A stretch of 64,000 bases of DNA from an uncultured Candidatus Saccharibacteria bacterium (GTDB lineage: Bacteria; Patescibacteriota; Minisyncoccia; Phycocordibacterales; DATDWN01): contig CAZQVT010000001.1 of assembly GCA_964596875.1 (NCBI GenBank), forward strand, positions 42,514 through 106,513. Direction: 5' to 3'. A program made the position numbers and the translations under genes. The notes below the pieces were generated by a model, which saw only the letters and a program-made list of their open reading frames with translations, was not told the origin of the DNA and ran no database searches. How positions within the stretch are numbered: position 1 is the stretch's first letter; each line of letters begins with the position of its first letter. Below, piece by piece: positions 1,983 to 56,831 of the stretch.

Positions 1983-2657
1983 ATGACTAAAGTACTTCCA
2001 GCAATAATACCAGTAAATAAAAAACAACTAGAAGAAGAAGTTTCTATGGTCGCACATTTTGCAGATACAGTTCAGGTAGATATTTCTGATGGTGTTTTTA
2101 CAAACACTAGAACGTGGCCATACAACGGACAGGATAGAGATTATTTTGAAAACTTAAAAACAGAGGCCGAAGGTTGGCCAAAATGGGAAGATGTAGATAT
2201 CGAACTTCACCTCATGGTCGCAAAACCAGAAAATATTTTGGAAGACTGGATTTCTACGGGAGTTTCTAGTGTTGTTGCACACATAGAAGCCACAGACGAC
2301 TTTCAAGAGGTTATAGATATTTGTAAAGAAAAAAATATTTCTGTTGGTGTTGCTATAAAACCGAGTACTGATATAGAAAAAATAAAAGATTTTGTTCCTC
2401 AAGTAGATTTTATTCAGGTAATGGGTTCTGACAATTTAGGAAAACATGGAGTAGAGTTGGAAGAAAAAAGTTTAGAGGTGATAAAATCATTGCGAGCAAA
2501 GTTTTCAAATAGTATAATTGCTATTGATATTGGTGTAACAGAAGAAAATGCAGAAACTCTTGTAGGTGCCGGTGTAAACAAACTAATTTCCGGAGGAGCA
2601 ATACTGAATTCGGATAGTCCAAAAGAAGTGTACAATTATTTCGAGTCTCTGAATTAA
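1983..2657 (+). CDS. rpe: ribulose-phosphate 3-epimerase-like TIM-barrel protein (divergent)
   Basis: VQVDISDGVF resembles the Rpe HVDVMDGHFVPN motif; ~224 aa fits size; context in pentose-phosphate cluster. Confidence 0.55.
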   Translation: MTKVLPAIIPVNKKQLEEEVSMVAHFADTVQVDISDGVFTNTRTWPYNGQDRDYFENLKTEAEGWPKWEDVDIELHLMVAKPENILEDWISTGVSSVVAHIEATDDFQEVIDICKEKNISVGVAIKPSTDIEKIKDFVPQVDFIQVMGSDNLGKHGVELEEKSLEVIKSLRAKFSNSIIAIDIGVTEENAETLVGAGVNKLISGGAILNSDSPKEVYNYFESLN

Positions 2658-2861: not shown

Positions 2862-3758
2862 TTGAATAACTTAACAGACGAAAAAATAGAGTTCCTCACA
2901 AAAAAAGCAAATGAAATCAGGATCTCTATTATAGAGATGCTAGTTTCTGCTGGTTCGGGACACTCTGCGGGACCTTTGGGAATGGCAGATATTTTTACAG
3001 CATTATATTTTTATATACTTCGCCACAACCCAGAGGAGCCTTTTTGGGAAGATAGAGACAGACTTATACTTTCAAATGGTCACATAAACCCAGTTTTGTA
3101 TGCAACACTCGCCCATGTTGGATATTTTCCTGTAAATGAACTTTTAACACTTAGAAAATTTGAGTCACGTTTGCAGGGGCACCCACACAGAGAATTTTTA
3201 CCTATTTTGGAAACTAGTTCTGGTCCACTTGGTTCAGGACTTTCACAGGCGGTGGGTATGGCGATAGCAGACAGGATGGATAAGGGTAAAACTTCAGACA
3301 GATTTTTCTATTGTTTGCTTGGCGACGGGGAACTTAATGAGGGTCAAAACTGGGAAGCAATAATGCTTGCTGGAAAAGAAAGACTTGGAAATCTTATCGC
3401 GATAGTAGACAGAAACAATATTCAAATAGACGGATATACAGAAGATGTGATGCCACTGGACTCACTCACACATAAATTTGAAGCCTTTGGCTGGCATGCA
3501 GAAGAAATAGATGGTCACAACTTTTCATCTATTGTAGAGGCGGTAGGTCGCGCCCAAGCTGTTTTTGATGGACCAAGTGTTATTGTTGCAAGAACTATTC
3601 CTGGAAAGGGAGTTTCATTTATGGAGCGAGACTTCAAGTGGCACGGCAACCCTCCTGGAACAGAAATGGCTGGCGAACCACCAAAAGATAAACAGGCAGA
3701 GATCGCTTTGCATGATCTGAGAACATTGGGAGGACAGATAAGAAGTGAGCACGAATAA
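2862..3758 (+). CDS. transketolase, N-terminal (TPP-binding) subunit of a split transketolase
   Basis: GSGHSAGPLGMADIF, GDGELNEGQNWEA motifs. ORF track starts at TTG 2805; ATG 2862 lies downstream of a TATAAAT -10 at ~2785 and is preferred. 14-nt overlap with C-terminal subunit gene. Confidence 0.8.
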   Translation: MNNLTDEKIEFLTKKANEIRISIIEMLVSAGSGHSAGPLGMADIFTALYFYILRHNPEEPFWEDRDRLILSNGHINPVLYATLAHVGYFPVNELLTLRKFESRLQGHPHREFLPILETSSGPLGSGLSQAVGMAIADRMDKGKTSDRFFYCLLGDGELNEGQNWEAIMLAGKERLGNLIAIVDRNNIQIDGYTEDVMPLDSLTHKFEAFGWHAEEIDGHNFSSIVEAVGRAQAVFDGPSVIVARTIPGKGVSFMERDFKWHGNPPGTEMAGEPPKDKQAEIALHDLRTLGGQIRSEHE

Positions 3759-5845: not shown

Positions 5846-6712
5846 ATGAAAACATTAAAACAAACAGTACTCGAAGCACGAGAGAAAAAGGTTGCAGTCG
5901 GACATTTTAACATTTCTAACTTAGAGGCTTTGTGGGGGATTTTCAAGGCAGCACAAAGTCTAAACGTTCCAGTAATTATCGGAGTTTCAGAAGGCGAAAG
6001 AGATTTTATTGGAGTAAAACAAGTTGTGGCACTGGTGAAAAGTATTCGTGAGGAATACGACTATCCTATATATCTAAATGCTGATCATACTTATTCTTTT
6101 GATAAAGTTAAAGAAGCCATAGATGCTGGTTTTGATTCTGTTATTGTAGACGGCGCAAAACTTTCTTTTGAAGAAAATGTAAAAATGACAAAACAGTGCG
6201 TGGAGTATGCGCGCGCTTGTGGTAGAGAAGTTTTGGTAGAAGCAGAACTTGGTTACATCGGTCAGTCATCAAAAGTTTTAGATGAAATCCCGGAAGGTGT
6301 AATGCTCGACGAAACATCTCTTACAGATCCAGCAAAAGCAAAAGAGTTTGTAGATGCTACAGGTATAGATATGCTCGCTCCTGCAGTAGGGAACTTTCAC
6401 GGCATGCTTCGCTCTGGTGTTGACCCGAAACTAAATATAGAAAGAGTAAAACAAATCGCCGACATAACAGGGATTCCTCTAGTTCTTCATGGTGGTTCAG
6501 GAAACTCTGGAGATGACTTCAAACAGTCTATTGCAAATGGTATCGCTATAGTTCATATAAATACAGAAATTCGTTTAGCATTTAGAGATGGAGTGAAAAA
6601 GTTTCTACAGGAAAACCCAGACGAAGTTGCACCTTACAAATTCCTAAAACCAGGAATGCAGGCAGTACAGGAAGTGGTAACAAATAAGTTGCGACAGTTC
6701 AATAATTTGTAG
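5846..6712 (+). CDS. fba: class II fructose-bisphosphate aldolase
   Basis: VAVGHFNISNLE...LHGGSG...class II FBA/tagatose-bisphosphate aldolase signature; 288 aa. Confidence 0.85.
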   Translation: MKTLKQTVLEAREKKVAVGHFNISNLEALWGIFKAAQSLNVPVIIGVSEGERDFIGVKQVVALVKSIREEYDYPIYLNADHTYSFDKVKEAIDAGFDSVIVDGAKLSFEENVKMTKQCVEYARACGREVLVEAELGYIGQSSKVLDEIPEGVMLDETSLTDPAKAKEFVDATGIDMLAPAVGNFHGMLRSGVDPKLNIERVKQIADITGIPLVLHGGSGNSGDDFKQSIANGIAIVHINTEIRLAFRDGVKKFLQENPDEVAPYKFLKPGMQAVQEVVTNKLRQFNNL

Positions 6713-6731
6713 ACCTCATTCGTTAATAATA

Positions 6732-6846
6732 TTTTTCAGACCACTCACTCTCTCCTGCGGAGAGTTCGCTTATCCTCGGCATCCAACCGTCAAGAACGGG
6801 GTGCCTTGACGGAGCCAAGCTTGGAAGTCTGCGGAGTCTGAAAAAT
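6732..6846. repeat. 115-nt intergenic repeat, copy A (TTTTCAGACC...TCCGTCAAG-aacggggtgc-CTTGACGGA...GCGGAGTC); family R1
   Basis: Near-identical core shared with 22527..22641, including the 9-bp-stem hairpin CCGTCAAGAACGGGGTGCCTTGACGG. Flanked by direct repeat CTCATTCGTTA (6717-6727 / 6856-6866). Confidence 0.7.
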
Positions 6847-6896
6847 ATTACTAACTCATTCGTTACTAAACTCATATTTTAAGAGCGGATTTTAAT

Positions 6897-6925
6897 ATTG
6901 ACATATGTAGTATAATGTGCTATAC
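6897..6925 (+). promoter_or_regulatory. sigma-70-type promoter TTGACA-17-TGcTATACT driving micro-island 1
   Basis: ttgacatatgtagtataatgtgctatact; same architecture as promoters of other islands and of housekeeping genes. Confidence 0.55.
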
Positions 6926-6939
6926 TTATACAAGTTAAA

Positions 6940-6987
6940 TTGTTCCAAGAAAGTGCTTATTTTGAGCCATTTCTTGGAACAATTTCG
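6940..6987 (+). promoter_or_regulatory. perfect 15-bp-stem hairpin in the predicted 5' UTR of island gene 7021..7335
   Basis: AATTGTTCCAAGAAA-gtgcttattttgagccat-TTTCTTGGAACAATT, immediately after predicted TSS and before AGGAGG RBS. Confidence 0.5.
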
Positions 6988-7020
6988 TTAACCGTTCCTT
7001 TCACCGCCCTAGGAGGCAGC

Positions 7021-7335
7021 ATGCAGAACTTCATGGTCAACGTCGTCACCTCGTCGGTTCAGTATCCCGTCGAGAATCCGAGGCTCGATCCGATCTTCGA
7101 CATGAACCAGACCATCCTCCTCCAGTTCGGGCCCTGCTCGAAGGCGGAGGGTGACGCTGTCGCGGACCGCATCAACGCATGGGTTCGTGGTGGCGAAGGT
7201 CGTGGTGCGGCTGAAGCCTTCCGTATTCTGGGACTGGATCAGAGAACGAAAGACGTCTGGGCATCCTGCGACGAAATCCCAACCGCGGGCATCTCGGAAC
7301 TCATCAAAAAGTTCCAGGTGGAAATCCCCGTTTGA
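7021..7335 (+). CDS. hypothetical protein, high-GC island gene (104 aa)
   Basis: AGGAGG RBS 7 nt upstream; GC3-rich codons (gtc/acc/tcg/ggc) unlike host; ORF track 6940..7335 extends upstream but ATG 7021 has the RBS. Confidence 0.5.
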   Translation: MQNFMVNVVTSSVQYPVENPRLDPIFDMNQTILLQFGPCSKAEGDAVADRINAWVRGGEGRGAAEAFRILGLDQRTKDVWASCDEIPTAGISELIKKFQVEIPV

Positions 7336-7526
7336 TCCACGTAACGATCCGTCTCTGGCGCGTCAGCCCAGTATCGTCCGAGGAAGTCATATATTCCTCG
7401 GACTTCCTTCAGAGAATTTAATTCTTAATTAAATGTTCTGAAGGAACGAACAGTTCCATCAAAGTAATTAAACTTTTGATTTCTTTGATGGGACAATTCC
7501 GTCCCTGTTCTTTTAGGAGGTTACCG

Positions 7527-7715
7527 ATGAAAGTTTACATCGTCATGCAGCAGGACCCACACGGAGAGGGTTCGCAGATCATGGGGGTGTACTTGGATAA
7601 GGCGAAAGCCGATGCCGAGGCCGCTGCCATGGTTCACACCATTGCCGTGGACGACGAGGGGCAGGATGTGGAGGTGTGCACTGGAGGTGTGGTAGAGCAT
7701 GAGGTAATCGAGTAA
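7527..7715 (+). CDS. hypothetical small acidic protein, high-GC island gene (62 aa)
   Basis: TTTTAGGAGGttaccgATG RBS; GC3-rich codons; MKVYIVMQQDPHGEG... Confidence 0.45.
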   Translation: MKVYIVMQQDPHGEGSQIMGVYLDKAKADAEAAAMVHTIAVDDEGQDVEVCTGGVVEHEVIE

Positions 7716-7911
7716 GGTAAGTCGTCAGTCTCATTAGGTAACTGACGTAAAAGGGAGTTAAGCTACCCGCCTGCCATGGCAAAGTGCTGATGACCTGAAT
7801 CGGGCGCTCGGAGAGATCCAGCGCCTTTTCGTTTGTAAGAAATACTACTAACAAAATTTTGTTGAGCCATAATTTTTATGGAACATCGCGGAGTGAGTGA
7901 ATAGTGAGTGA

Positions 7912-7978
7912 GAAATGACGCGTATCATTTCGCAAGACCTTGAGCACGAAGTAGCGAAAGGTGTACAGAGTCTGTAAG
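7912..7978 (+). repeat. repeat family R2/R3 copy a: hairpin GAAATGAcgcgtaTCATTTC + GCAAGACCTT ... AAGGTGTACAGAGTCTGTAAG
   Basis: hairpin+GCAAGACCTT shared with 33436.., 43550.., 29685..(rc); AAGGTGTAC...CTGTAAG shared with 33505.., 43618.., 60253.. Confidence 0.55.
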
Positions 7979-8077
7979 ACTCGAAGAAAATTTCTAGCGA
8001 GAAATTATTCTGTTTCCAGAAAAGTTATGGCGAGAAAGAAATTTTGTGTCGCAGATTTAGTTTGATACAATTAAGCA

Positions 8078-9730
8078 ATGAAATATTCACATTCAGAGTT
8101 ACTTGATAAAATAAAAGAAATTTTTCAGGGTGAAGTAAACTCTGACGTAAAAACACTAGATACATATAGTCGTGATGCTAGTTTGCTCGAGGTAAAACCG
8201 GAACTAGTTTTGTTTCCAAAAGATTCAGAAGATATTCAAAAGTTAGTTAAGTTTGTTTCCGAAAACAAGTCTGATAACCCGACACTTTCTATCACAGCAC
8301 GTTCTGCTGGAACTTGTATGTCAGGAGGCTCATTAAACGAGTCTATTATTCTAGATGTCACCAAACATATGGGTGGTATAAAGCAAGTTTCGTCTGAAGA
8401 GGCAACAGTTTTACCTGGAACTTTTTACAGAGACTTTGAAGTGGAGACTTTGAAACATGATGCGATACTGCCAAGTTATACAGCATCAAAAAACTTAAAC
8501 ACTGTGGGTGGCATGGTGGCAAACAACTCTGCAGGTGAAAAAACTTTGGCATACGGAAAAACAGAAAAATATGTAAAAGAACTAAGAGTTATTTTTGCAG
8601 ATGGTAACGAGTATGTGACAAAACCACTAAACAGAGAAGAGTTAGAAAAAAAGATGGCGCAGGGGGACTACGAGGGAAATATTTATAAAAACCTTTGGAA
8701 TCTTATACAGGAAAATGAACATGCAATAAAATACGCTAAACCAGATGTTTCTAAAAACTCTGCTGGATATTATTTGTGGAATGTTTGGGATGGAGAAACT
8801 TTTGATATCAACAAACTTATAACAGGTTCACAGGGAACACTTTGCATAATAACTGACATCAAGTTCAAACTAGTTCCTATAAAAAAGAAATCAAAATTAT
8901 TTGTTATTTTTTTGCGCAACCTAGATCATTTAAGTGAGTTGGTAAACGAAGTTCTAACAACAAACCCAGAATCTCTAGAGTCATATGACGACAGTACGAT
9001 GAAACTTGCTTTCAAGTTTTTCCCATCCATGCTTAAAACTATGAAAGTTCATAACTTTGTAAAACTAATGTTTGGATTTTTGCCAGAAGCAGGGATGATA
9101 CTAACTGGGGGAATACCAAAACTCATTTTGCTTGTAGAATTTTCTGACAATGACGAAAAAGAGATAGATAAAAAAATGTATGAACTTCAAAGAAAGATTG
9201 CTCATTTTGGTTTGAAGACTCGTATGTCACGTTCTGAAGAAGAATCTAGCAAGTACTGGACTATAAGGCGGGAGAGTTTCAACCTTTTGCGACAACACGT
9301 AAAAGGGGCGCGAACTGCGCCATTTATAGATGATGTGGTAGTAAAACCACAATATCTTCCAGAGTTTCTACCAAAGATGCGAAAAATTTTGGATGAACAC
9401 AAACTCGTTTACACCATTGCAGGGCATGCAGGAAATGGAAACTTTCATATTATCCCTCTTATGAATATGAAAGATCCTAAAAATGCAGAACTTATCCCAA
9501 TAGTTTCCGACAAAATATATAGTCTAGTAAAAGAATACCGAGGTTCTATAGATGCGGAACACAATGACGGTATTATACGTACTCCATATCTAGAGCAAAT
9601 GTTTGGTCATGAAATGGTCCAGATTTTCAAAAAAACTAAAGACATTTTTGACCCACAAAACATCTTTAACCCAGGCAAAAAGGTGGGCGGGACTAAACAA
9701 TACATGATAGACCACATTGTGAAAAACTAA
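8078..9730 (+). CDS. FAD-binding oxidoreductase (FAD-linked oxidase/GlcD-like, PCMH-type FAD domain)
   Basis: N-terminal FAD_binding_4-like region (VLFPKDSEDIQKLVKFVSENK...ARSAGTCMSGGS) and C-terminal FAD-oxidase_C-like HxxNGN..H motifs; 550 aa. Confidence 0.65.
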   Translation: MKYSHSELLDKIKEIFQGEVNSDVKTLDTYSRDASLLEVKPELVLFPKDSEDIQKLVKFVSENKSDNPTLSITARSAGTCMSGGSLNESIILDVTKHMGGIKQVSSEEATVLPGTFYRDFEVETLKHDAILPSYTASKNLNTVGGMVANNSAGEKTLAYGKTEKYVKELRVIFADGNEYVTKPLNREELEKKMAQGDYEGNIYKNLWNLIQENEHAIKYAKPDVSKNSAGYYLWNVWDGETFDINKLITGSQGTLCIITDIKFKLVPIKKKSKLFVIFLRNLDHLSELVNEVLTTNPESLESYDDSTMKLAFKFFPSMLKTMKVHNFVKLMFGFLPEAGMILTGGIPKLILLVEFSDNDEKEIDKKMYELQRKIAHFGLKTRMSRSEEESSKYWTIRRESFNLLRQHVKGARTAPFIDDVVVKPQYLPEFLPKMRKILDEHKLVYTIAGHAGNGNFHIIPLMNMKDPKNAELIPIVSDKIYSLVKEYRGSIDAEHNDGIIRTPYLEQMFGHEMVQIFKKTKDIFDPQNIFNPGKKVGGTKQYMIDHIVKN

Positions 9731-9771
9731 TAAAATCACCCCATCTGCGTTGTTGCTGTTCAATTTTGCTC

Positions 9772-9810
9772 ACTCACCTTACTATTTGTAAGGCTCGTTC
9801 TCAAAATCTC
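9772..9810 (+). repeat. R4 hairpin module CTCACCTTACtattTGTAAGGCTCGTTCTC downstream of FAD oxidoreductase
   Basis: CCTTAC/GTAAGG inverted repeat plus conserved flanks also at 927.., 25286.., 42759.., 46266.. Confidence 0.5.
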
Positions 9811-9894
9811 CAGCGCCTAGCACCTAGGGTAATTTAATTAGTTTTTAGTTTTGGAGGGGTTGATTTTATACAGTATTTAGTCTATACTAGCCGA

Positions 9895-18130: not shown

Positions 18131-18262
18131 AAATTTTTTTAAAATTAACTAAATTGCTTCAGATGCTAGGCGGACGAGGAAAATATGACGAGCCTTATTG
18201 GGTATAAGGTGAGGAATATTTTACCGAAGTCCAACAACGCAGATGAGGTGATTTTGTTGATT

Positions 18263-19513
18263 TTACCTCCAGGTAGTTTTGACGCTAAAGATAGCATTCC
18301 AAGCTGCTTTGCCGATCCATAGAGGTGCAATAAACATATATAAAGACAGGTAATAAATCAAGTCTAGGCCAAGGTCAAGTTTGTTCTCTGACATTCTCTT
18401 TGACATTAGTATCATTAGAAATGACCCTATAGCAACAACTAGTCCAACAAGGGCTATTATCTCTGTATTTACGTAAAATAGGTCAAAATTAGGCATTCCT
18501 AGGTGTAGGTTTAGGCCCACAGTTTGGACTCTAACAAACCAGTTTGCTAGGCCATCTATAATAGAGTAAATAGATACGCTAGAAACAAAAAGAACTGAAA
18601 CTATAGAAATACATGCCATCGGAAGTATAAGCATTCCGACATTTCCATATTTTTTATTGAAAATCATGTCTCTAAAATCGTAGGCATTTTTTATAAAACC
18701 ATATGACCAGCGAACTCTCTGTTTCAAAAGTTTTTTAACAGTTTCTGGAGGAACTGTGTATACGATAGCCTCATGCGCATGAGCGATTTTGAAACCATTT
18801 TTTTGCATGCGAAGTGCTATTTGGATATCTTCGGTGTTGTGAGCGTGTTCGTATCCACCCAGTTTTTCAAATACATCTTTTCTAAATATAGAAAATGGTC
18901 CAGGAGTAATGTAGATAGCATCCATGTAGTGGTACATTTTTCTAGTGAAAATACCGAAGCCGTACTCTACTTTCTGAAGCAGTTGCAAAATGTTTCTTGG
19001 TTGCCAAAGTTTGATAGAAGGTGCAACCGCCATAACTTCTCTGTCTTCAAAGTAAAGAGCGATTTTTTTCATGCTGTCCTTGTGTACATAAGAGTCGGCA
19101 TCAAGGCATCCAACAAGGTCTGTAGTTAGTTTTGAAATACCATAGTTTAGTGCGGTGTATTTACCACCGTTTTCTTTTGTGTGAAGTTCTATTTGTTTAT
19201 TATTTCTAAACTTCTGCACCACATTCCATGTACTGTCTGTACTACCGTCGTCCACTACCATGATTTTCAGTTTGTCTTTCGGGTAGTCTAGGTTCAGTAG
19301 AGAGTGAATAGTTTTTGAAACTGTTTTTTCTTCATTCCAGCAAGGTACGATAATAGTAACAGAAGGGTATTTTTTCAGTTTTACATTTGCTTGGGCTTTT
19401 GACTCGGCTTTGATTTCTTTGCGGTTTTCAAAGTAAGTTATGAGCAAAAAGATCTCAAAATTTAGAGAAATGAACAGAAAGAAATATGTTACGTAGTTGT
19501 TTATATCACTCAT
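18263..19513 (-). CDS. processive family-2 glycosyltransferase (cellulose/chitin-synthase-like, membrane)
   Basis: VDDGSTD (DxD region), QRVRW (QxxRW) motif, flanking TM helices; 416 aa. Confidence 0.75.
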   Translation of the reverse strand: MSDINNYVTYFFLFISLNFEIFLLITYFENRKEIKAESKAQANVKLKKYPSVTIIVPCWNEEKTVSKTIHSLLNLDYPKDKLKIMVVDDGSTDSTWNVVQKFRNNKQIELHTKENGGKYTALNYGISKLTTDLVGCLDADSYVHKDSMKKIALYFEDREVMAVAPSIKLWQPRNILQLLQKVEYGFGIFTRKMYHYMDAIYITPGPFSIFRKDVFEKLGGYEHAHNTEDIQIALRMQKNGFKIAHAHEAIVYTVPPETVKKLLKQRVRWSYGFIKNAYDFRDMIFNKKYGNVGMLILPMACISIVSVLFVSSVSIYSIIDGLANWFVRVQTVGLNLHLGMPNFDLFYVNTEIIALVGLVVAIGSFLMILMSKRMSENKLDLGLDLIYYLSLYMFIAPLWIGKAAWNAIFSVKTTWR

Positions 19514-20567: not shown

Positions 20568-22508
20568 ATGAAAATCTCATATAACTGGTTACAAGAATAT
20601 ATAGAAGATAGGTTGCCTGCAGTGGAAACTGTGGTAGATGCTTTGACTATGCATTCTTTTGAAATAGAGGGAGTTGAGGATTTTGGTGATGACAAAATCC
20701 TAGATGTAAAAATTTTACCGAACCGTGCACATGACTGTCTTTCTCACTACGGTATCGCTTCAGAAGTCGCAAGTGTATTAAATTTAAAAAGAAAAGACTT
20801 GTTACCTTCTGTTGTTTTGGCAAATACAGACAAAATAAACTTAAGTATTAATACTAAAAATTGCAGTAGGCAAATATTTGTTCTAGTTACAGGAGTAAAT
20901 GTAAAAGAAAGTCCACAATGGCTAAAAGATAAACTGGCTACGCAGGGGTCACGTTCTATAAACGCGATAGTAGATATGACAAACTATTTAACCTTTGCTT
21001 TTGGACAACCAATGCACGCATTCGATGCTGCAAAAGTTTCTGTAGATAGAAAGGGAAGATATGAGTTCAATATAAGAGATGCTGGAAAGGGTGAGAAAAT
21101 CACATTGCTAGATGGCAAAGAATACACCCTAGATGTTTCAAACTCAGTTATTGCTGATGGCTCTAGACCACTGGACGTCGCTGGTGTTATGGGAGGACAG
21201 GATAGTGGGGTAAGTAGTACAACCAAAGATATTATTCTTTCATTTTCTTCTTTTGACCCAGTAAGTGTTCGAAAGACTGCAAAAAGTTTGGGTGTGAGAA
21301 CAGATGCGTCATATAGGTTTGAAAATGAAATTTCTCAGAGTTTGATAGATAGAGTTTTGCCGTATGCTTTGAAAAATATTGTGGAACTTTCAGGTGGAAT
21401 TGTTGTGGGACAAGTTGAACTAAACAAAAATCCAGAAAAACAAAAAGAAGTTTCTGTTTCACTAGATAAGGTTTCTAAAATGCTGGGAGTTTCTGTGGCA
21501 GGCGACGAAGCTTTGAAACTTTTGGCAAGACAAAACATACAAGCGACTGTAGAGAGTGACAAAATAAAAGTAGTGGCTCCAAAAGAAAGACTAGATATAA
21601 AAATAGAGGAAGATGTTGTAGAAGAAATAGGAAGACTATTTGGTTATGAAAATGTGTCACCAAAAAAACTAGAAGTAGAGGCCAAGGTTTCTGTAAACCA
21701 GGAGATTTATATTGCCGACAAAACTAGACAGATTTTAAACAGTTTGGGTTTTGTAGAAATATATACATACGCAATGACACAAAGTGGAGAAGTAGAAATA
21801 GAAAACCCGCTTTCAGGAGATAAAAAGTTTTTGCGAAGCCACTTAAGTGGCGCTATGGAGGAATCTTTAGAGAGAAACTCAAAATATTTAGACTTGCTAG
21901 GTGAAAATGAAGTAAAACTTTTTGAAATCGGAAAAGTTTTCAAAACAAAAGGCGAAGAGTCTCACTTGTGTTTGGGTGTAAAGTTTCCAAAAAACTACAA
22001 CCGCGCGAAGCCGAGCAGCGGTCGTATGACCGAAAAGATAAATGTAGACGAAGAGATAGCGAAAACTATTCAAGGACTAGAAGAAGGTCTTGGGGTTTCT
22101 GTCGGGGATGTGTCTGTAGTTGGCGGTGTCGCAGAGTTTCAGATAAGCAGAATAGTAAAAGAACTAGATAGGGTAGAGGAATACCCACAGGACTTGTGGA
22201 GTAAAAAAGAAAAAGATTTTACATTCAAACCTATTTCAGTTTTTCCTTTTGCTGTGCGAGATGTGGCGGTGTTTGTTCCGAACGAAATAGGTGTAGAGCA
22301 GGTAGAAAACTTGATAAAACAACATTTGAACCAAAATGTAGTTCGTTTCAGTATGTTTGATAAGTTTACTAAGGGCGATAAAACTTCTCATGGTTTTAGA
22401 CTTGTGTTTCAGTCAAACGAAAAAACTTTAACTGATGAAGATATAAATGCTGTGATGAATCCAATCTATGACGCATTAAAATCACAGACCGGATTCGAAA
22501 TTAGATAA
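20568..22508 (+). CDS. pheT: phenylalanine--tRNA ligase beta subunit
   Basis: MKISYNWLQEYI start, B3/4 and B5 and C-terminal FDX-ACB-like regions; 646 aa. Confidence 0.85.
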   Translation: MKISYNWLQEYIEDRLPAVETVVDALTMHSFEIEGVEDFGDDKILDVKILPNRAHDCLSHYGIASEVASVLNLKRKDLLPSVVLANTDKINLSINTKNCSRQIFVLVTGVNVKESPQWLKDKLATQGSRSINAIVDMTNYLTFAFGQPMHAFDAAKVSVDRKGRYEFNIRDAGKGEKITLLDGKEYTLDVSNSVIADGSRPLDVAGVMGGQDSGVSSTTKDIILSFSSFDPVSVRKTAKSLGVRTDASYRFENEISQSLIDRVLPYALKNIVELSGGIVVGQVELNKNPEKQKEVSVSLDKVSKMLGVSVAGDEALKLLARQNIQATVESDKIKVVAPKERLDIKIEEDVVEEIGRLFGYENVSPKKLEVEAKVSVNQEIYIADKTRQILNSLGFVEIYTYAMTQSGEVEIENPLSGDKKFLRSHLSGAMEESLERNSKYLDLLGENEVKLFEIGKVFKTKGEESHLCLGVKFPKNYNRAKPSSGRMTEKINVDEEIAKTIQGLEEGLGVSVGDVSVVGGVAEFQISRIVKELDRVEEYPQDLWSKKEKDFTFKPISVFPFAVRDVAVFVPNEIGVEQVENLIKQHLNQNVVRFSMFDKFTKGDKTSHGFRLVFQSNEKTLTDEDINAVMNPIYDALKSQTGFEIR

Positions 22509-22526
22509 GGGCTTTTTCACTAAAAA

Positions 22527-22641
22527 TTTTTTCAGACCGCTCGTTCCGCCTGCGCTTCACTCACTTTGTCCTCAACCCAAATCCGTCAAGAACGGGGTGC
22601 CTTGACGGAACCAAGCTTTGGGTTTGCGGAGTCATCAAAAA
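22527..22641. repeat. 115-nt intergenic repeat, copy B (family R1)
   Basis: TTTTTCAGACCgctc...ATCCGTCAAGAACGGGGTGCCTTGACGGAACCAAGCTTTGGGTTTGCGGAGTC; aligns along full length with 6732..6846. Confidence 0.7.
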
Positions 22642-22742
22642 GTTTTAGTTCAACGCAACACAAATACAATAATTTTTTTACATACAAAAACCCCTGACCT
22701 GGCCCCACATATTGCGTGGGGCTCCTGGCCGGGGCGCGCGAG

Positions 22743-23012
22743 TTAGTTACTCGCATGGTATGAGGTGTAGAGTGGTGGGTTTCTGCAGATCTCGAACCTC
22801 ATCTCGAGATCCTGGTACTTCTTGTTCAGGTTGTTATACTTTCCTCCGATGTCTTCAAGGATGCCTCGTTGCTGGTCCAGCACCACACTAAGTGCTTCTG
22901 AGCTTTGCTTGAGCTCCTTGATCTCTTCGAGGTTGGGGTACGACCACGCAGTGACACTTACTCCCACTGCGATTCCGAGACTGAACACGAGGCCTACTGC
23001 GAGGTATCTCAT
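22743..23012 (-). CDS. small secreted/membrane-anchored coiled-coil protein, GC-enriched island gene (89 aa)
   Basis: GGAGaaagtgtccATG RBS; signal-like MRYLAVGLVFSLGIAVGV; own TTGACA promoter at ~23045-23075 (minus) and hairpin terminator 22700-22725; ORF track extends to 23060 but internal start has the RBS. Confidence 0.45.
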   Translation of the reverse strand: MRYLAVGLVFSLGIAVGVSVTAWSYPNLEEIKELKQSSEALSVVLDQQRGILEDIGGKYNNLNKKYQDLEMRFEICRNPPLYTSYHASN

Positions 23013-23144
23013 GGACACTTTCTCCATGCAATACTGTAATGTATTTTGTGTAATTGTCAATATGGTATTGTACTAAATTTGCTTGTTTGTACCCTTAAAA
23101 TTTGCTATAATTTGCAAGTAAAATTAACTAAAAATACTTTAAAT

Positions 23145-25241
23145 ATGGCCAAGGAAACAGGGAAGAAAAAAGATAGTTACGGAGCGGATGCGATACAGAT
23201 TCTAGAGGGTCTTGAGCCTGTTAGAAAGCGTCCTGGAATGTACATTGGTACAACTGGTCTAGATGGTTTACATCACCTTATTTGGGAAATTTTTGACAAC
23301 TCTCGTGACGAAGCCATGGGAGGTTTTGCAAATGATATCGAAGTTACTCTTCTCCCAGGAAACAGAATCCGAGTTACCGACAACGGACGAGGTATTCCTG
23401 TAGATATTCACAAACAAACAAAAGTTTCAGCACTTGAAACTATCATGACAACACTTCACGCTGGAGGAAAGTTCGGAGGTGAAGACGGAGGTTACAAAGT
23501 TTCTGGAGGACTCCACGGTGTGGGTGCATCTGTAGTAAACGCACTTTCTATTTACTGTAAAGTAACAGTTCACAAAACTGGTGATGGTATATACATGCAA
23601 GAGTATTCACAAGGAAAGAAAAAAGCTTCTGTAAAAAAAGTTGGTTTAACAAAGAAAAATGGAACTATTGTAGTGTTTGAACCAGATCCTGCTATTTTCC
23701 CAATCATAGATTTTTCATTCAAAAGAGTTGTAGACCATTTGCGACAACAAGCATACCTTGTAAAAGGTCTACGCATTACTGTAAACGATGCTTCTGAATA
23801 TGAGGGTAAAATAAAAGAAGATGAAGTTTTCAAAATCTCTGAACTTGGACTAGAAATACCTTCAATGTCTTTCTATTTCGAAGGAGGACTTTTGTCTTTG
23901 GTTAAGTTTATAAACCACGACCAGAAACCTATTCACAAAAATGTTTTCTATGTAGAGAAGAAAACAAACGAATACGAGTCAGTAGAGGTGTCACTACAGT
24001 ATGTAGACGACATCGCTTGTAGACTTTCTGCTTTTGCAAACAACATATACAACCCAGAAGGTGGAACACACGTGACTGGTTTCAAAACTGCGCTTACTCG
24101 TATCCTAAACTCATACGGAAGAAAAAATAACCTAATAAAAGAATCAGAGGATAACTTTACTGGTGACGACGTGCTAGAAGGTCTAACAGCAGTTATCTCT
24201 GTAAAACTTCGAGAAGTTCAGTTCGAAGGTCAGACAAAGGCAAAACTTGGAACAGTAGAAGCACAGTCTTCTGTAAACACTATTTTCTCTGAAGCATTTG
24301 GTACTTTCCTAGAAGAAAACCCAGATGATGCAAAAGCAATCATAAACAAAGTTGTTTTGGCACTAAAGGCACGAAAAGCTGCAAAGGCTGCAAAAGATTC
24401 TGTACTTAGAAAAGGTGCTCTAGAAGGTATGACACTTCCAGGAAAACTTGCAGACTGTCAGTCAAAGTCTGCAGAAGATTCTGAACTGTTCATTGTGGAG
24501 GGAGACTCTGCGGGAGGTACGGCAAAAACTGGTCGTGACAGACGAACACAGGCGATACTTCCTTTGCGAGGTAAAATCCTAAACATTGAAAGAGCAAGAC
24601 TAGACCGACTACTAGAGTCAGAACAAATCAAAAACCTTGTTATTGCGCTAGGAACTGCTATTGGAGATACGTTTGATATTTCTAAACTGCGATACCACAA
24701 AGTTATTATTGCAACCGATGCCGACGTGGACGGTGCTCACATCCGAACTCTTATTTTAACTTTGTTATACAGATATTTCCGACCACTTATTGACGGAGGA
24801 TTTATCTACATCGCTCAACCACCTCTATACAAAATAAAGAAAGGTAAAGAAGTTTTCTATGCATATTCTGACGAAGACAAAGACAAGATTGTTGGCAAAG
24901 CAGATATTTCTGAAATCTCAGAAGTAGAAAGTATGTCAGATGATGAAGAAGAGGAGGATGAGGATTCCGCCGGAGGCAATAAGGCCGGTGAGGCGAAAGC
25001 TTCGAATGCAAAGCCGAAGACAGCGAAAATAAATATTCAAAGATACAAAGGTCTTGGAGAAATGAACTCAGAGGAGTTGTGGGAAACAACCATGGATCCT
25101 GCAAGAAGAATCCTAAAACAAGTTACTGTAGACAGTAGTGTTTCTGCAGACAAAGTATTTGATGTCCTTATGGGTACGGATGTTCCAGCGAGAAAATCAT
25201 TTATTCAGTCTAACGCTACAAAAGCAAACCTGGATATATAA
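23145..25241 (+). CDS. gyrB: DNA gyrase subunit B
   Basis: SYGADAIQILEGLEPVRKRPGMYIG, GHKL ATPase, TOPRIM EGDSAGG, C-terminal acidic insertion; promoter TTGTTT-17-tgcTATAAT upstream. Confidence 0.9.
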   Translation: MAKETGKKKDSYGADAIQILEGLEPVRKRPGMYIGTTGLDGLHHLIWEIFDNSRDEAMGGFANDIEVTLLPGNRIRVTDNGRGIPVDIHKQTKVSALETIMTTLHAGGKFGGEDGGYKVSGGLHGVGASVVNALSIYCKVTVHKTGDGIYMQEYSQGKKKASVKKVGLTKKNGTIVVFEPDPAIFPIIDFSFKRVVDHLRQQAYLVKGLRITVNDASEYEGKIKEDEVFKISELGLEIPSMSFYFEGGLLSLVKFINHDQKPIHKNVFYVEKKTNEYESVEVSLQYVDDIACRLSAFANNIYNPEGGTHVTGFKTALTRILNSYGRKNNLIKESEDNFTGDDVLEGLTAVISVKLREVQFEGQTKAKLGTVEAQSSVNTIFSEAFGTFLEENPDDAKAIINKVVLALKARKAAKAAKDSVLRKGALEGMTLPGKLADCQSKSAEDSELFIVEGDSAGGTAKTGRDRRTQAILPLRGKILNIERARLDRLLESEQIKNLVIALGTAIGDTFDISKLRYHKVIIATDADVDGAHIRTLILTLLYRYFRPLIDGGFIYIAQPPLYKIKKGKEVFYAYSDEDKDKIVGKADISEISEVESMSDDEEEEDEDSAGGNKAGEAKASNAKPKTAKINIQRYKGLGEMNSEELWETTMDPARRILKQVTVDSSVSADKVFDVLMGTDVPARKSFIQSNATKANLDI

Positions 25242-25285
25242 CTTCCAAATTTAGCGAACTCCTCGTTCTCGAGTTTCAAAATGTT

Positions 25286-25320
25286 CGTCACCTTACTACC
25301 TGTAAGGCTTCTCACATTTT
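25286..25320 (+). repeat. R4 hairpin module TCGTCACCTTACtaccTGTAAGGCTTCTCACATTTT downstream of gyrB
   Basis: shares GCGAACTCCT upstream and TCGGATTTCATCTAAAT downstream boxes with copy at 42730-42830. Confidence 0.5.
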
Positions 25321-25372
25321 AAAACTCTCAACATCGGATTTCATCTAAATTTGAAAGTTGTTAAAAAATAAA

Positions 25373-25924
25373 ATGGAAAATAAAAAACTAACTACCTTTG
25401 CGCAGGACTATGCCAGAAAAGCACATGTGCATATTTCCAAAACCACAGTTTCTGGAATTAACATTCCACAAATTGTTCATATACAGGAAGTCGCAGATTT
25501 GGTTTGGGCATCTGGTGGTACAGATGATGAAATCGTTGCTGCATGGTTACATGACATAGTAGAAGATACCGATATAACTTTACAAGATATTGAGGAAGTT
25601 TTTGGTAAGGATATTGCGGAAATTGTAGAGGGACTAACTGATCCTTTAGATTTTAAAGGTTTGCCAATTGAGGAAAGAAAACAAAAACAAGTAGAAAGAC
25701 TTTTGAATAAAAGCAATAGTGTTAAAAGGATAAAAATGGCTGACCAGACTTCAAATGTAAAGTATTTAGCAGTTGACCCATCTGTTTCTTGGGCAGAAGA
25801 TAGGGCGCTGGGATATATTGAAGGAGCAAAAAAGATTATTAACGCATGTAGTGGAGTTAGTGAATTACTTGATAGTTTATTTGAGGATGTTTATAGAAAA
25901 GCGATTAAAAGATACAATGTATAA
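25373..25924 (+). CDS. HD-domain phosphohydrolase (RelA/SpoT-type HD, small alarmone hydrolase-like)
   Basis: AAWLHDIVEDT HD signature; 184 aa; ORF track start 25358 is TTG. Confidence 0.55.
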   Translation: MENKKLTTFAQDYARKAHVHISKTTVSGINIPQIVHIQEVADLVWASGGTDDEIVAAWLHDIVEDTDITLQDIEEVFGKDIAEIVEGLTDPLDFKGLPIEERKQKQVERLLNKSNSVKRIKMADQTSNVKYLAVDPSVSWAEDRALGYIEGAKKIINACSGVSELLDSLFEDVYRKAIKRYNV

Positions 25925-28883: not shown

Positions 28884-28956
28884 AGCACAACACTAGGCTT
28901 TTCTGCGATACATTGACATAATCCATAAATGGTTTATTGTGTTTTAGGGGGGGCGC

Positions 28957-37286: not shown

Positions 37287-39542
37287 ATGTATCTAAAGTC
37301 TATTGAACTAAATGGTTTCAAATCTTTCGCTAAAAAAAGCGAACTATCTTTCAATACAAAAGTTTCTGCGATAGTTGGCCCAAATGGTTCGGGCAAGTCA
37401 AATGTTGCCGAAGCCTTTCGTTTTGTTTTGGGTGAACAGTCTATAAAAAGTTTGCGTGGTAAAAAAGGTGAGGACCTTATTTTTAATGGAGCAGGTGACC
37501 TGCCTAGAGCAAACAGGGCTTCGGTAAAAGTAGTTTTCGACAACTCCACAAAGTTTTTACCTGTGGACTTTGAAACTGTCACAGTAGAACGTGTGGTGCA
37601 CCGGGATTCTGTAAACGAGTACCTCATAAACGGCTCCCAGGTCAGACTAAAAGACGTTGTAGAACTTTTGGCATCTGCACATATTGGCTCTAGTGGTCAC
37701 CATATTATTTCCCAGGGTGAGGCAGACAGAATACTGAACGTTAGTCCAAAAGAAAGAAAAAATATGATAGAGGATGCGCTCGGCCTAAAAATGTATCAGT
37801 ACAAAAAAATAGAAAGTCAGAAGAAACTTTTGAAAACAAAAGAAAATATTGAAAAAGTAGAATCTCTTCGCAGAGAAATAATGCCTCATATAAAGTTTCT
37901 CAAAAAGCAGGTAGAAAAAGTAGAAAAGGCTATTCAAATGAAAGAGGAGTTGCAGAAAGAGGCTTTAGAGTATTGTAAGCGTGAAGACGACTACATAAAG
38001 AAAACAGAACAAAAACTGACTACAGAAAAGACACCTCTAACTCATAAACAAAAAGAGTTGGATGATGAACTTTCTCATGCAAAAAGTATTCTAGAGAATG
38101 CAAAAAACAAAGACGGCCTGTCTGACAGACTTATAACTTTGGAAAAAGACTTGCACAGAGCCAGAGATGAAAAAGACGAACTTTTCAGAAACTTTGGAAG
38201 ACTAGATGGAGAAATAAACTCTCTGGTAAAGATGGTCAGAAAACAAGAAGAAGTCGCTCGTTCCATGGAACACAAAACTGTGACCCTGGTTTCTGTGGAG
38301 GAGCTTTCTGTAAAAATAGAAGACAAAATAAAAAAAGCAAAAGAGACAAATGATGTTGGGGTTCTAAGTAGCGCTCTGGATGAAGTGTTTGGACTACTTA
38401 CTGACTTTATCGACTACAACAAAGACAAAGTTGAAAACACCCTTATTGCAGACGTGCAAAAAGATATAGAGCATCTACAAGTTTCTAAAAAAGAACTAGA
38501 AGTAAAACTAGAGAAGGTAAACAACGAAGAAAAAGAACTTTCTGCAGAGTACAGTAAACTTAAAAACGAAATAGAAAAAGAGAAAGATTCAAACCGAGAT
38601 GCGGAAAAGGCCGTGTTTAGAATCATGGCAGAGTCTGGCGAGATACGTTCAAAACTTCATGACATTGCTTTGCACGAGGAAAACCTGAAACTAGTGAAGG
38701 AGGATTTTAAAAGAGAACTTACGGAACTTGGGGTTCTTTTGGGCACACATGTTTTGCAGTTTGGAAACGTAGAGATAGAGAACCTAGACGAAGACAGACA
38801 TTTGCAGGAAGAAAGAAGAAAAAGAATAGAAAAAATAAAAATACGACTAGAGGACTCTGGAGGAGTGCTTGGTACAGAGATACTAAAAGAATACACAGAT
38901 GCCACAGAGCGTGATGCATTTTTGGAAAAAGAACTAGCAGATCTAGAAAACTCGGCTACATCTCTGGGAGTACTCATAAGTGACTTGGATGTAAAACTTG
39001 GTACAGAGTTTAAAAATGGTGTAGAAAAAATCAACAACCAGTTCAAGGAATACTTTGCGATGATGTTTGGTGGAGGTGAAGCAAAACTAGAAGTAGCGGT
39101 TCCAGTAAAAAAGAAAAAAGATACAGATATTGTTTTGGAAGATAGTGAAGGCGAAGAGAATTATGAAGCAGAGGAAACAGAAAGTAGTGAGGGTATAGAC
39201 ATAGAAGTTTCTTTGCCAAAGAAAAAAGTTCGAGGACTTATGATGCTTTCTGGTGGTGAAAGAGCACTGACTTCTATTGCACTTTTGTTTGCTATTTCTC
39301 AGGTAAACCCACCACCGTTTATTATTCTAGACGAAACAGACGCAGCGCTGGATGAAGCAAACTCTAAAAAGTATGCAGATATGATAGAGAATCTTTCGAA
39401 GTATTCTCAGCTTATTGTGATAACTCATAACAGAGAAACAATGTCGCGTGCAGGAATACTTTACGGAGTGACTATGGGTGCGGGCGGGGGGTCAAAACTA
39501 CTTAGTGTTGCCTTTGAGGATGCCGTTGCCGTAGCAAAGTAA
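37287..39542 (+). CDS. smc: chromosome partition protein SMC (short form, ~751 aa)
   Basis: MYLKSIELNGFKSFAKK...GPNGSGKSN Walker A, long coiled coils, C-terminal LSGGERALTSIALLFAI signature + Walker B ILDETDAALD. Confidence 0.8.
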   Translation: MYLKSIELNGFKSFAKKSELSFNTKVSAIVGPNGSGKSNVAEAFRFVLGEQSIKSLRGKKGEDLIFNGAGDLPRANRASVKVVFDNSTKFLPVDFETVTVERVVHRDSVNEYLINGSQVRLKDVVELLASAHIGSSGHHIISQGEADRILNVSPKERKNMIEDALGLKMYQYKKIESQKKLLKTKENIEKVESLRREIMPHIKFLKKQVEKVEKAIQMKEELQKEALEYCKREDDYIKKTEQKLTTEKTPLTHKQKELDDELSHAKSILENAKNKDGLSDRLITLEKDLHRARDEKDELFRNFGRLDGEINSLVKMVRKQEEVARSMEHKTVTLVSVEELSVKIEDKIKKAKETNDVGVLSSALDEVFGLLTDFIDYNKDKVENTLIADVQKDIEHLQVSKKELEVKLEKVNNEEKELSAEYSKLKNEIEKEKDSNRDAEKAVFRIMAESGEIRSKLHDIALHEENLKLVKEDFKRELTELGVLLGTHVLQFGNVEIENLDEDRHLQEERRKRIEKIKIRLEDSGGVLGTEILKEYTDATERDAFLEKELADLENSATSLGVLISDLDVKLGTEFKNGVEKINNQFKEYFAMMFGGGEAKLEVAVPVKKKKDTDIVLEDSEGEENYEAEETESSEGIDIEVSLPKKKVRGLMMLSGGERALTSIALLFAISQVNPPPFIILDETDAALDEANSKKYADMIENLSKYSQLIVITHNRETMSRAGILYGVTMGAGGGSKLLSVAFEDAVAVAK

Positions 39543-39561
39543 AAAGTTTTATAATTTTGAG

Positions 39562-39598
39562 TTGCAAAAAGGGCGGTCGCTGTTGCGCCGCCCTTCTG
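39562..39598 (-). terminator. rho-independent terminator (minus strand) for island gene 39619..39864
   Basis: rc GAAGGGCGGCGCAACAGCGACCGCCCTTTTTGCAAC. Confidence 0.6.
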
Positions 39599-39618
39599 GC
39601 TGTGTGAGCTCGCCACGT

Positions 39619-39864
39619 TCAGTGGGCGAGTGACAGTCGGAAGATCCGAACGGGGAAGAGCATCGGCTCGGTGTCACTTCTCATGACTGCCGGGCCGAAG
39701 GGTGTTCTTGAGATGACGACGCTATCGCCACACTGATCTCGCACGACTGCGCGTACGAACAGGCATCTGTCCGCCCCACAGACGATCTCGACCGCTCCGA
39801 AGGGGTGAATCTGATTGACTACATCCCCCGGTGACAGTGTTACCGCTCCTTCGGGCATGCTCAC
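39619..39864 (-). CDS. hypothetical protein, high-GC island gene (81 aa; GTG start)
   Basis: TTGGAGGcccaatGTG RBS; GC3-rich; TTGCAA-17-TGcATAAT promoter at 39870-39905 (minus). Confidence 0.4.
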   Translation of the reverse strand: MSMPEGAVTLSPGDVVNQIHPFGAVEIVCGADRCLFVRAVVRDQCGDSVVISRTPFGPAVMRSDTEPMLFPVRIFRLSLAH

Positions 39865-39916
39865 ATTGGGCCTCCAACGAAGTATTATGCAATAGTATCA
39901 AATATATTGCAAGTAA

Positions 39917-43529: not shown

Positions 43530-43549
43530 AAAGTTTTGTTTTCCGGTGA

Positions 43550-43639
43550 GAAGTGATGTTATCACTTCGCAAGACCTTGCCAAATTTTTCTAGAACGAAG
43601 TGATTAGAAAAATAGACAAGGTGTACTGTTCCTGTAAGG
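43550..43639 (+). repeat. repeat family R2/R3 copy c: GAAGTGATgttaTCACTTC-GCAAGACCTT ... AAGGTGTACTGTTCCTGTAAGG
   Basis: shared modules with copies a,b,d,e. Confidence 0.6.
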
Positions 43640-43732
43640 AAATCATAAAAAAATAGAGGAGTGGAAACTAGGTAAAGGCAAAAAATAACTCCTACAGAAA
43701 AACCCGCGAGTGCGACAGAGTTTCTCTGCCGC

Positions 43733-43912
43733 CTACGCGGGCTGGAGCTCGTTGACCTTTCTGGTCTTGAGCCGTGCTTTTGCTTGTTTTCTTTTGACCT
43801 CACTCATCATCCTTTCTTGCTGTATCTCTGCGATGATTGCGTCGAGTCTGCCGAGCATTCGTGCTCCCCAGAGTCTTTCGCGGATGATCTGCTCTTTTGC
43901 TTGTCGAGTCAT
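43733..43912 (-). CDS. small highly basic coiled-coil protein, high-GC island gene (59 aa; below ORF-track threshold)
   Basis: AAGGAGGccatATG RBS, TTGACA-17-TATATT promoter 43925-43960 (minus), hairpin terminator 43700-43735; MTRQAKEQIIRERLWGARMLGRLDAIIAEIQQERMMSEVKRKQAKARLKTRKVNELQPA. Confidence 0.45.
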   Translation of the reverse strand: MTRQAKEQIIRERLWGARMLGRLDAIIAEIQQERMMSEVKRKQAKARLKTRKVNELQPA

Positions 43913-44037
43913 ATGGCCTCCTTATCCACCTGCAATTAATATACAGTAAATACTGTATATTGTCAAATTTGAGAAAGGCCGCGCTCCTCTCGGTTCGCGG
44001 CCTTGTTCGGGTGGGGGACTTTCTCGTCCCCGCCGGT

Positions 44038-44421
44038 TTACTTCTTTCGCTTCTTCCTCGCTTTCTGCTTGCGCGCACTTCCGATAGTAGTGCTGCTACC
44101 CAGCCACCGTTTGGGACTGAGTTTGGCGAGTTCCATCACGCACATGAAGGCGTAGATGGTGACATCGCCCACATGCTTGAACGAGTCGAGGTCCCAACAC
44201 TTGACCGCCTTGGCCATCGCCCCGACTGTCTTGTACTGGGAGTAGTGTCTCTTCACCACCTTGTTCAGGCGGGTGACGGCGGAGGTGTGTCCGCACTCGA
44301 GCTTCTGGTTCACCTGCCGGCGAGTCAGTTTGAACTCTCCGATGGTTAGAACCACCGCGTTCTGTCTGTCGGCGTAGGCCTTGCTTACCGGATGTCTGAA
44401 ACCCTCACTCTTCCTCGGCAT
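44038..44421 (-). CDS. hypothetical basic protein with KKRKK C-terminus, high-GC island gene (127 aa)
   Basis: CGGAGGGcatcaacgaATG RBS; consensus promoter TTGACA-aatatgttgtatgtgc-TATAAT at 44430-44480 (minus); GC3-rich. Confidence 0.45.
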   Translation of the reverse strand: MPRKSEGFRHPVSKAYADRQNAVVLTIGEFKLTRRQVNQKLECGHTSAVTRLNKVVKRHYSQYKTVGAMAKAVKCWDLDSFKHVGDVTIYAFMCVMELAKLSPKRWLGSSTTIGSARKQKARKKRKK

Positions 44422-44524
44422 TCGTTGATGCCCTCCGATTAGTATTATAGCACATACAACATATTTGTCAAGTATAAAATATAACAAATTGTTTTGAATT
44501 TTTTATATCTGTTACAATGTTTCA

Positions 44525-56820: not shown

Positions 56821-56831
56821 AATCTAAAACA

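Follow-up and report, generated by a model that had tools for sequence, protein, structure and literature searches.

The intergenic element that we call R1 belongs to a family of interspersed copies of 140-190 nt that are constrained in structure, widespread in Patescibacteria of the Parcubacteria/Paceibacteria type, and uncatalogued. Two copies lie in the window, by which we mean the whole 64,000-nucleotide stretch of DNA that was analysed. R1 is a discrete unit that relocates between species, and does so without target-site duplication. We read it as a small non-autonomous mobile structured module of the REP/REPIN-ERIC kind, usually placed directly behind stop codons, and give this reading a probability of about 0.55.

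The fold of R1 and the extent of the family

The two related elements that were originally noticed in the window are real. They are found directly 3′ of fba, the class-II aldolase (class-II fructose-bisphosphate aldolase) gene (5846-6712, stop codon 6710-6712), and of pheT (20568-22508), both on the plus strand, and one hairpin of 26 nt, CCGTCAAGAACGGGGTGCCTTGACGG, is exactly the same in the two (6787-6812 and 22583-22608). This hairpin has two matches in the window when up to three mismatches are allowed, where shuffled sequences give an expectation of 0.00. The original prediction had the copies near-identical over a unit of 115 nt, and here it has to be corrected. The segments 6732-6846 and 22527-22641 are 76% identical overall, the 5′ half (64%) being less alike than the 3′ half (87%), and exact agreement is confined to the 26-nt hairpin and short junction motifs. 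Moreover the unit exceeds 115 nt because the outer stem extends into what had been taken for flanks; the full elements placed by a covariance model are given in Table 1. Searching the window with this model, filters off, returns the two full copies and one frame relative, and no more. Inside copy A, on the opposite strand, there is a 50-aa ORF (6723-6875, minus strand) that is almost certainly spurious.

R1 folds as a three-way junction, made of a long outer stem, the P2 hairpin and an arm, P3-P4, that ends in the invariant GTCAAG/CTTGAC hairpin. The outermost stem, P0, is variable in sequence, and the inverted repeats in the flanks are 8-17 nt in most copies vs 5.6 in controls. Between P0 and P1 lies an internal loop in which TTTCTCA is opposite TTCAAC, unpaired. 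P1 is a stem of ~17 bp (TTTTCAGAG.../...CTCTGAAAA), of which 16 of 17 pairs are altered on both sides across the family. P2 is a hairpin with a C(A/T)GC loop. P3a is a 3-bp helix, UCC/GGR, the middle C-G pair of which becomes U-A and G-C in other copies. P3 is a stem of 8 bp, and then come the unpaired ACCATGC and P4, with the stem (T/C)GTCAAG..CTTGAC(A/G); here GTCAA/TTGAC is constant even where the tip is replaced. The motifs GTCCTC, CTGCGG, ACCATGC and the CWGC loop are unpaired and invariant. Relatives that share the frame and lack P4 occur at 58123-58250 and at L019:6654-6755, and the GTCAAG hairpin is therefore not required across the whole superfamily.

Covariation across the copies gives strong support for this fold. 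The test was made on a plain MAFFT alignment that had not been fitted to the structure, in which 86.4% of cells pair as against 33-53% when the partners are slid by 1-3 columns, and in which 32 of the 43 pairs show a change on both sides. There are 327 such double-sided changes compared with 119 in shuffled alignments, and none of 500 shuffles reaches 327. As an example, the basal P2 pair of copy A (A 6747/T 6765) goes from A-U to G-C in the ortholog L037, with both sides altered. The thermodynamic z-score is -4.2 on both strands for copy A, and only -0.9 and -1.7 for copy B; folding of single sequences is therefore uninformative.

How widely is R1 distributed? A 20-mer taken from the hairpin and run against one genome per species gives 40 exact matches in 38 loci, with up to five loci contributed by one genome. 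Nearly all loci carry labels of the Patescibacteria type (Zambryskibacteria, Parcubacteria, Paceibacterota, Minisyncoccia, and MAGs labelled Saccharibacteria), the exceptions being two contigs binned as Nitrospira. Viral contigs have no match to the 20-mer. The covariance model built from these copies finds 49 copies in the 38 loci and the window, representing about 25 Patescibacteria species with several copies per genome, so that the family is far from being limited to the original two. Eight of the 49 are without the 20-mer, and in these the tip of the hairpin is altered or replaced. They show that the P4 loop is dispensable while GTCAA/TTGAC is kept; that P4 does not vary in its loop and inner stem among 40 copies is in part a result of their retrieval by the 20-mer. 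Copies within one genome are mostly old, with a mean identity of 69%, and movement is therefore rare.

Rfam contains no family that matches R1, and the hit to a known cis-element by which the original prediction would have been refuted did not appear. At gathering scores the whole window yields only a tRNA, and when copies A and B and L010 are scanned with higher sensitivity, no hit on R1 rises above chance (E above 2). A literature search on REP, MITE, RNA motifs and tyrosine transposases in Patescibacteria/CPR found nothing relevant. We rate R1 as an ERIC/REP-like element, a kind that is known, of which we found no description in this lineage.

Table 1. Positions of R1, its parts, related elements and the candidate transposase in the window.
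Feature	Position	Strand	Remarks
R1 copy A, full element	6718-6860	+	cmsearch 110 bits, E about 1e-26; starts 6 nt past fba stop
Copy A outer stem P1, 5′ arm TTAATAATATTTTTCAGAC	6723-6741	+	pairs with 6836-6854
Copy A P1, 3′ arm GTCTGAAAAATATTACTAA	6836-6854	+	partner of 6723-6741
Copy A P2 hairpin ACTCTCTCC-TGC-GGAGAGT	6747-6765	+	loop carries family motif C(A/T)GC
Copy A junction TCCTC (P3a 5′ side), then P3 5′ arm GGCATCCA	6773-6785	+	
Copy A P4 hairpin CCGTCAAG-AACGGGGTGC-CTTGACGG	6787-6812	+	GTCAA/TTGAC stem invariant in family
Copy A unpaired AGCCAAGCT, P3 3′ arm TGGAAGTC, junction TGCGGA (P3a 3′ side)	6813-6835	+	
Direct repeat CTCATTCGTTA, left	6715-6725	.	overlaps element start
Direct repeat CTCATTCGTTA, right	6855-6865	.	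degenerate in ortholog L037 (CTCATTTCGTA)
R1 copy B, full element	22515-22654	+	cmsearch 114 bits; starts 7 nt past pheT stop
Copy B arms	P1 22520-22537/22631-22648; P3 22574-22581/22617-22624; P4 22583-22608	+	
Frame relative without P4: outer stems, P2, junction GCGCTC...CCGCGATG	58123-58250	+	cmsearch 29.7 bits, E 2e-5, filters off
Second frame relative, opposite orientation, with nested R2 module	7850-8050	-	
R2 copies	33464-33565(-), 43540-43645(-), 60205-60285(-), 29640-29720(+), nested about 7905-7965(-)		
Third-family copies	9715-9860, 55345-55490(-), 25230-25375, 46210-46355, 18165-18275(-); also 34805-34900		
RayT-like Y1 (HUH) transposase gene	48408-49031	-	Pfam Y1_Tnp 1.6e-12
Hairpin TGTCAAAGAGTCTCTTTGACA beside transposase gene	48406-48426	+	GTCAA stem related to R1 P4
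Identical 21-nt hairpin, other side of transposase gene	49042-49062	+	

Relocation, conservation and placement

The original prediction took R1 for a small non-autonomous mobile element, and comparison of sites bears this out. At three sites in one genome (L003, L024 and L033) the copies are 99-100% identical, with flanks that are unrelated right outside AAAATCTC...GAGATTTT and no duplication. Copies from different species that are 85-91% identical also have unrelated flanks, and their sites are non-orthologous. In addition, orthologous spacers are found both filled and empty. One such spacer exists in three states: TAA-ATTT-ATG in the window; TAA-TAC, the element and ATG in L014, where the element fits exactly between TAA-TAC and the following ATG; and a small ORF in L031. 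Downstream of fba the relatives L031 and L014 have the fba stop, one base and then the ATG of the following gene, and lack the 1365 nt, copy A included, that lie there in the window. In this block (6712-8076) a GC-rich island is also present, and copy A and the inverted frame relative bracket it. L031 and L014 carry R1 in another spacer, at which the window has an ordinary terminator. In the pheT-gyrB spacer of L001, R1 lies in the other orientation and at another position, beyond an unrelated small ORF. Finally, a mini-element of about 80 nt, R2, is present within the R1 junction in L011 (7391-7540) and cleanly absent from the orthologous R1 of the closely related genome L013 (3132-3275).

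The ends of the main subfamily are inverted termini of 8-9 bp, (T)AAAATCTC...GAGATTTT(A), which are degenerate in copies A and B. The direct repeat of 11 bp, CTCATTCGTTA, is exact and does bracket copy A as originally described, with coordinates corrected by 1-2 nt, but target-site duplication does not characterise the family. Across 46 copies, direct repeats in the flanks typically reach 5-7 nt at most, which is what random controls give (mean 5.9). Among the 46 a flanking repeat of 11 nt is unique to copy A, and the ortholog L037 retains 8 degenerate nt of it. The repeat is a local peculiarity, and may be the remnant of a second left end. No related autonomous IS with the same ends is seen in the 38 loci of 8 kb or in the window.

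R1 also occurs as inverted pairs. In L015 the copies at 6584-6728(+) and 6750-6891(-) are separated by 22 nt. In L033 the pair 2010-2153(+) and 2933-3049(-) brackets an ORF of 190 aa, a composite-like arrangement that resembles 6718-8050 of the window.

Selection was examined in three orthologous pairs. Copy A is 95.8% identical to L037:5805-5946, whereas the identity of fba at codon positions 1, 2 and 3 is 92.0, 93.8 and 61.8%, respectively, and that of the next 100 nt is 71%. Copy A is thus conserved beyond the second codon positions of the adjacent gene. The R1 copies of L014 and L031 are 98.6% identical, with flanks at 80 and 78%, and those of L013 and L011 differ by one mismatch, with flanks at 93-95%. 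Orthologous R1 is more conserved than its neighbours, and is therefore not decaying junk. Every R1 copy is under strong purifying selection, and paralogs diverge by the accumulation of compensatory changes.

The placement of R1 is biased. Twenty-four copies start no more than 26 nt past the stop of a co-oriented upstream gene, and in five the 3′ end abuts the stop of a gene on the opposite strand; the orientation relative to the upstream gene is 27:13 overall. Roughly one copy in three is antisense to its neighbours or lies between divergent genes, and orientation vs GC skew is only 31:14. The neighbours are assorted housekeeping genes with no common cargo; gyrB adjoins copy B, and gyrA/topoisomerase genes adjoin other copies, which we regard as anecdotal. 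At copy A a scan for the intrinsic-terminator consensus finds none, the outer stem being A/T-rich with a T run inside the 3′ arm, and fba is followed by no conventional terminator before a promoter-like site is reached at 6898-6926.

Is the fold required in DNA or in RNA? Of 2028 cells, 88% are Watson-Crick pairs, with 59 G-U as against 77 A-C, so that wobble pairs give no asymmetry from which to assign an RNA strand. Since G-U is not above A-C, this argues against selection on the plus-strand RNA alone, and the RNA half of our model is weak. The pair statistics fit a fold needed in DNA or in both strands.

A RayT-like transposase and other repeats in the window

The window contains a gene for a RayT-like Y1 transposase, whose best NCBIfam match is the REP-associated tyrosine transposase at 63 bits, under the cut-off of 80. 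The gene lies between two identical hairpins (Table 1), which are found nowhere else in the window. Homologs with E below 1e-20 number more than 3500; an organism name is attached to few of these, in each case from Patescibacteria, and JGI calls many of the homologs RayT. TGTCAA(A/G)G hairpins flank the gene at all homolog loci checked. At six other transposase loci they take the form TGTCAAAG-N5-CTTTGACA, as singlets or inverted doublets, and at the locus L041 that of TGTCAAGG..CCTTGACA. The gene and its hairpins look like a system of the REP-RAYT type, for which we found no description in this lineage. The similarity between the transposase hairpins of the window and R1 P4 is confined to the GTCAA(A)G stem, 6-7 bp that are alike and not identical. 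The 38 R1 loci hold no homolog of the transposase, and the 20-kb RayT locus L044 holds no R1. Judged from the likeness of the stems, the RayT-like enzyme may mobilise R1.

Directly beside the transposase gene is a 1-kb island (47354-48391) of 63% GC in a window of 39% GC. The protein that it encodes, of 297 aa, has a signal-like segment at its N-terminus and matches no Pfam family, and a GC-rich terminator comes after the gene. The island looks horizontally acquired.

Other repeat families are interspersed in the window. R2, of about 80-105 nt, consists of GTACACCTTT, a hairpin, AAGGTCTTGCGAAGT, a hairpin and ACTTCTCAC, and has no Rfam match. A third family comprises long hairpins of about 140 nt with apical CACCTTAC..GTAAGG, mostly right after genes such as gyrB and that of an FAD oxidase. 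A related hairpin, CGTCTAAA...TTTATACG, also occurs.

GC-rich islands with small ORFs (50-55% GC, 0.4-0.9 kb) are found at 6952-7837, 22593-23044, 28913-29779, 36638-37263 and 39443-39919, and further at 43686-44466, 54417-54790, 56823-57215 and 61288-61671. They have no general link to R1. Examples of their ORFs are a DUF7336 protein at 7476-7715 and an HTH protein at 28957-29160. A GC-rich non-coding tail that lies behind the island ORFs is conserved between 7716-7850 of the window and L037:5250-5400 (minus strand), though the ORFs differ. This tail runs GTCGTCAGTCTCATTAGRTAACTGACG...GGGAGTTAAGCT...AAGTGCTGATGA... with a terminator at its end, has no Rfam match, and may be a structured RNA. 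A hammerhead-like CTGATGA within it was dropped as a candidate when a sensitive Rfam scan gave no ribozyme. A connection of R1 with GC-rich islands or cassettes was likewise rejected, as a GC-rich neighbour accompanies no more than 6 of the 47 copies and they have no cargo gene in common.

Known repeats and alternative explanations

The ERIC/IRU elements of Enterobacteria are imperfect palindromes of about 127 bp. The studies of Hulton 1991 and of Wilson and Sharp 2006 are said to have found them to be extragenic, usually within transcription units, in either orientation. From the same studies their sequence is reportedly conserved across species while their positions differ, and the larger variants are said to be insertions at fixed internal sites. 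No transposase is known for ERIC. R1 resembles these elements in size, in being extragenic and in both orientations, in its conserved sequence and variable position, in having no known transposase, and in its internal insertions, which in R1 lie at the tips of P3 and P4. In contrast to ERIC, R1 belongs to another phylum with no relation in sequence, and forms a three-way junction with conserved single-stranded motifs instead of one long imperfect hairpin. R1 has the properties of an ERIC-like structured repeat, taken as a functional class and not as a family by homology.

The Correia/NEMIS elements of Neisseria and the bcr1-type elements of the Bacillus cereus group are, like R1, interspersed repeats, with a length of 100-160 bp. 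They are co-transcribed with the genes beside them and form long duplexes that are RNase III substrates in Neisseria, and in some the RNA structure is maintained by compensatory changes. Their target duplications are clear (TA; TTTAT) and their inverted termini longer, and R1 lacks such duplications. A review covers interspersed repeats of this sort (PMC3184786).

In its behaviour R1 is like ERIC and the REP/REPIN/BIME elements of Proteobacteria, which are extragenic, folded, conserved in sequence, variable in position, free of duplications and modular, with a single-copy Y1 transposase in the background. For the REP/REPIN/BIME elements see PMC3116915, PMC5581495 and PMC3184786. In REP/REPIN-RAYT systems extragenic hairpin repeats show compensatory evolution, make no duplications and persist for long times alongside a single-copy, hairpin-flanked Y1 gene (PMC3116915, PMC3337134, PMC5581495). 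R1 agrees with them in compensatory evolution, in the absence of duplications and in its persistence. The window also has a RayT-like gene between TGTCAAAG hairpins, the stem of which is very close to that of R1 P4 though the hairpin sequences differ. The copy density of R1 is modest (two per 64 kb). Nor is the architecture that of a REPIN, which is two inverted REPs of 20-40 nt where R1 is a 140-190-nt junction with a single tip hairpin. Like the BIMEs of E. coli, R1 is modular, with a shared frame, varied inner modules, and nesting (R2 inside R1 or R3), yet the modules are unrelated in sequence and no IHF or gyrase motifs were identified. By sequence, then, R1 is not a member of the ERIC, REP/REPIN or BIME families. 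Palindrome-associated elements derived from IS200/IS605 share with R1 the absence of duplications, a dependence on hairpins, and a presumed Y1 HUH mobiliser. Each end of those elements has a similar subterminal hairpin, and terminal inverted repeats are lacking, in contrast to the inverted termini and dissimilar inner hairpins of R1, for which no target tetranucleotide is definable.

Could R1 instead be the gene or cis-element of a functional structured RNA, a 3′-UTR module or protein-binding small RNA, that has been spread by duplication and recombination with its mobility incidental? A structured RNA or terminator-like cis-element had been offered as an alternative in the original prediction, and it does fit the strong covariation, the placement after stops and the purifying selection; the canonical terminator signature is absent. 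Such an RNA would also agree with the invariant unpaired motifs, with ortholog conservation near that of a tRNA (96-99% vs 62% at third codon positions), with the 24:5 excess of copies abutting the stop of a co-oriented gene, and with fba having no other terminator before the next promoter. Yet G-U pairs do not outnumber A-C, one third or so of the copies run antisense to neighbouring genes, R1 has neither promoter nor terminator of its own, and Rfam gives no family. Moreover the termini are discrete and inverted, the junctions look like those of exact insertions, and copies at unrelated sites can be 100% identical, all of which resembles transposition, and we consider the RNA explanation unlikely. 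Alternatively the fold might be selected as DNA, as a cruciform or single strand, binding a host protein or organising replication or topology, with RNA uninvolved. REP/BIME elements bind gyrase, IHF or Pol I. Covariation that is Watson-Crick-dominated and strand-symmetric, the occurrence of both orientations and, anecdotally, the gyrB and gyrA/topoisomerase neighbours are all in keeping with this. It does not predict the preference for the site after a co-oriented stop, however, and its binding protein is purely putative, so that we regard it as distinctly improbable.

The original prediction favoured a MITE-like element with an 11-bp target-site duplication; as a classical MITE it would be moved by the cut-and-paste of a DDE transposase. 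The exact repeat at copy A and the short terminal inverted repeats of the main subfamily are what such an element should have, but for the family as a whole this is largely refuted and very improbable, given flanking repeats at the random level, a degenerate repeat in the ortholog of copy A, filled/empty junctions and identical copies without duplication, and no related IS in the 38 loci and the window. We similarly disfavour, as barely credible, an attC-like recombination site bounding gene cassettes. It is suggested by the GC-rich islands, with their foreign-looking ORFs, that follow both copies in the window and by syntenic spacers that hold differing small ORFs beside R1. Against it, a GC-rich neighbour is found for just those 6 of 47 copies, the neighbours are diverse housekeeping genes that share no cargo, there are no arrays and no integrase, and the end motifs TTTCTCA and TTCAAC face each other unpaired, which is unlike attC core sites.

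We return to the small mobile structured module as the best reading, for which a mechanism can be proposed. R1 would move in the form of folded single-stranded DNA, on which the one RayT-like Y1 transposase that the genome has would act in trans; we infer the link to RayT because the flanking hairpins of the transposase gene itself carry a nearly identical stem. Within the transcript of the upstream gene the long R1 duplex would act as a 3′-end structure, in protection, processing or termination. A role of this kind would explain the selective retention of R1.

Patescibacteria are regarded as extreme cases of genome streamlining, yet the window carries at least 14 structured intergenic repeats of four families, some of them nested. 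A bolder proposal, which we think unlikely as a whole, is that R1 and its siblings R2, R3 and E are portable 3′-end/insulator modules that are specific to Patescibacteria and needed by the host. A RayT-like enzyme that has been domesticated, or some other conserved protein, would then read the junction and GTCAAG hairpin, and operon boundaries would largely be such mobile nested elements and not ordinary terminators. The covariance model of R1 can be used for annotation, and can avert miscalled small ORFs such as 6723-6875. The RayT-like genes, with their thousands of homologs, would offer a handle on REPIN-like biology beyond Proteobacteria. If the R1 elements are both mobile and kept by selection, they would constitute an uncatalogued layer of gene boundaries across a huge and mostly uncultured branch of the bacteria.
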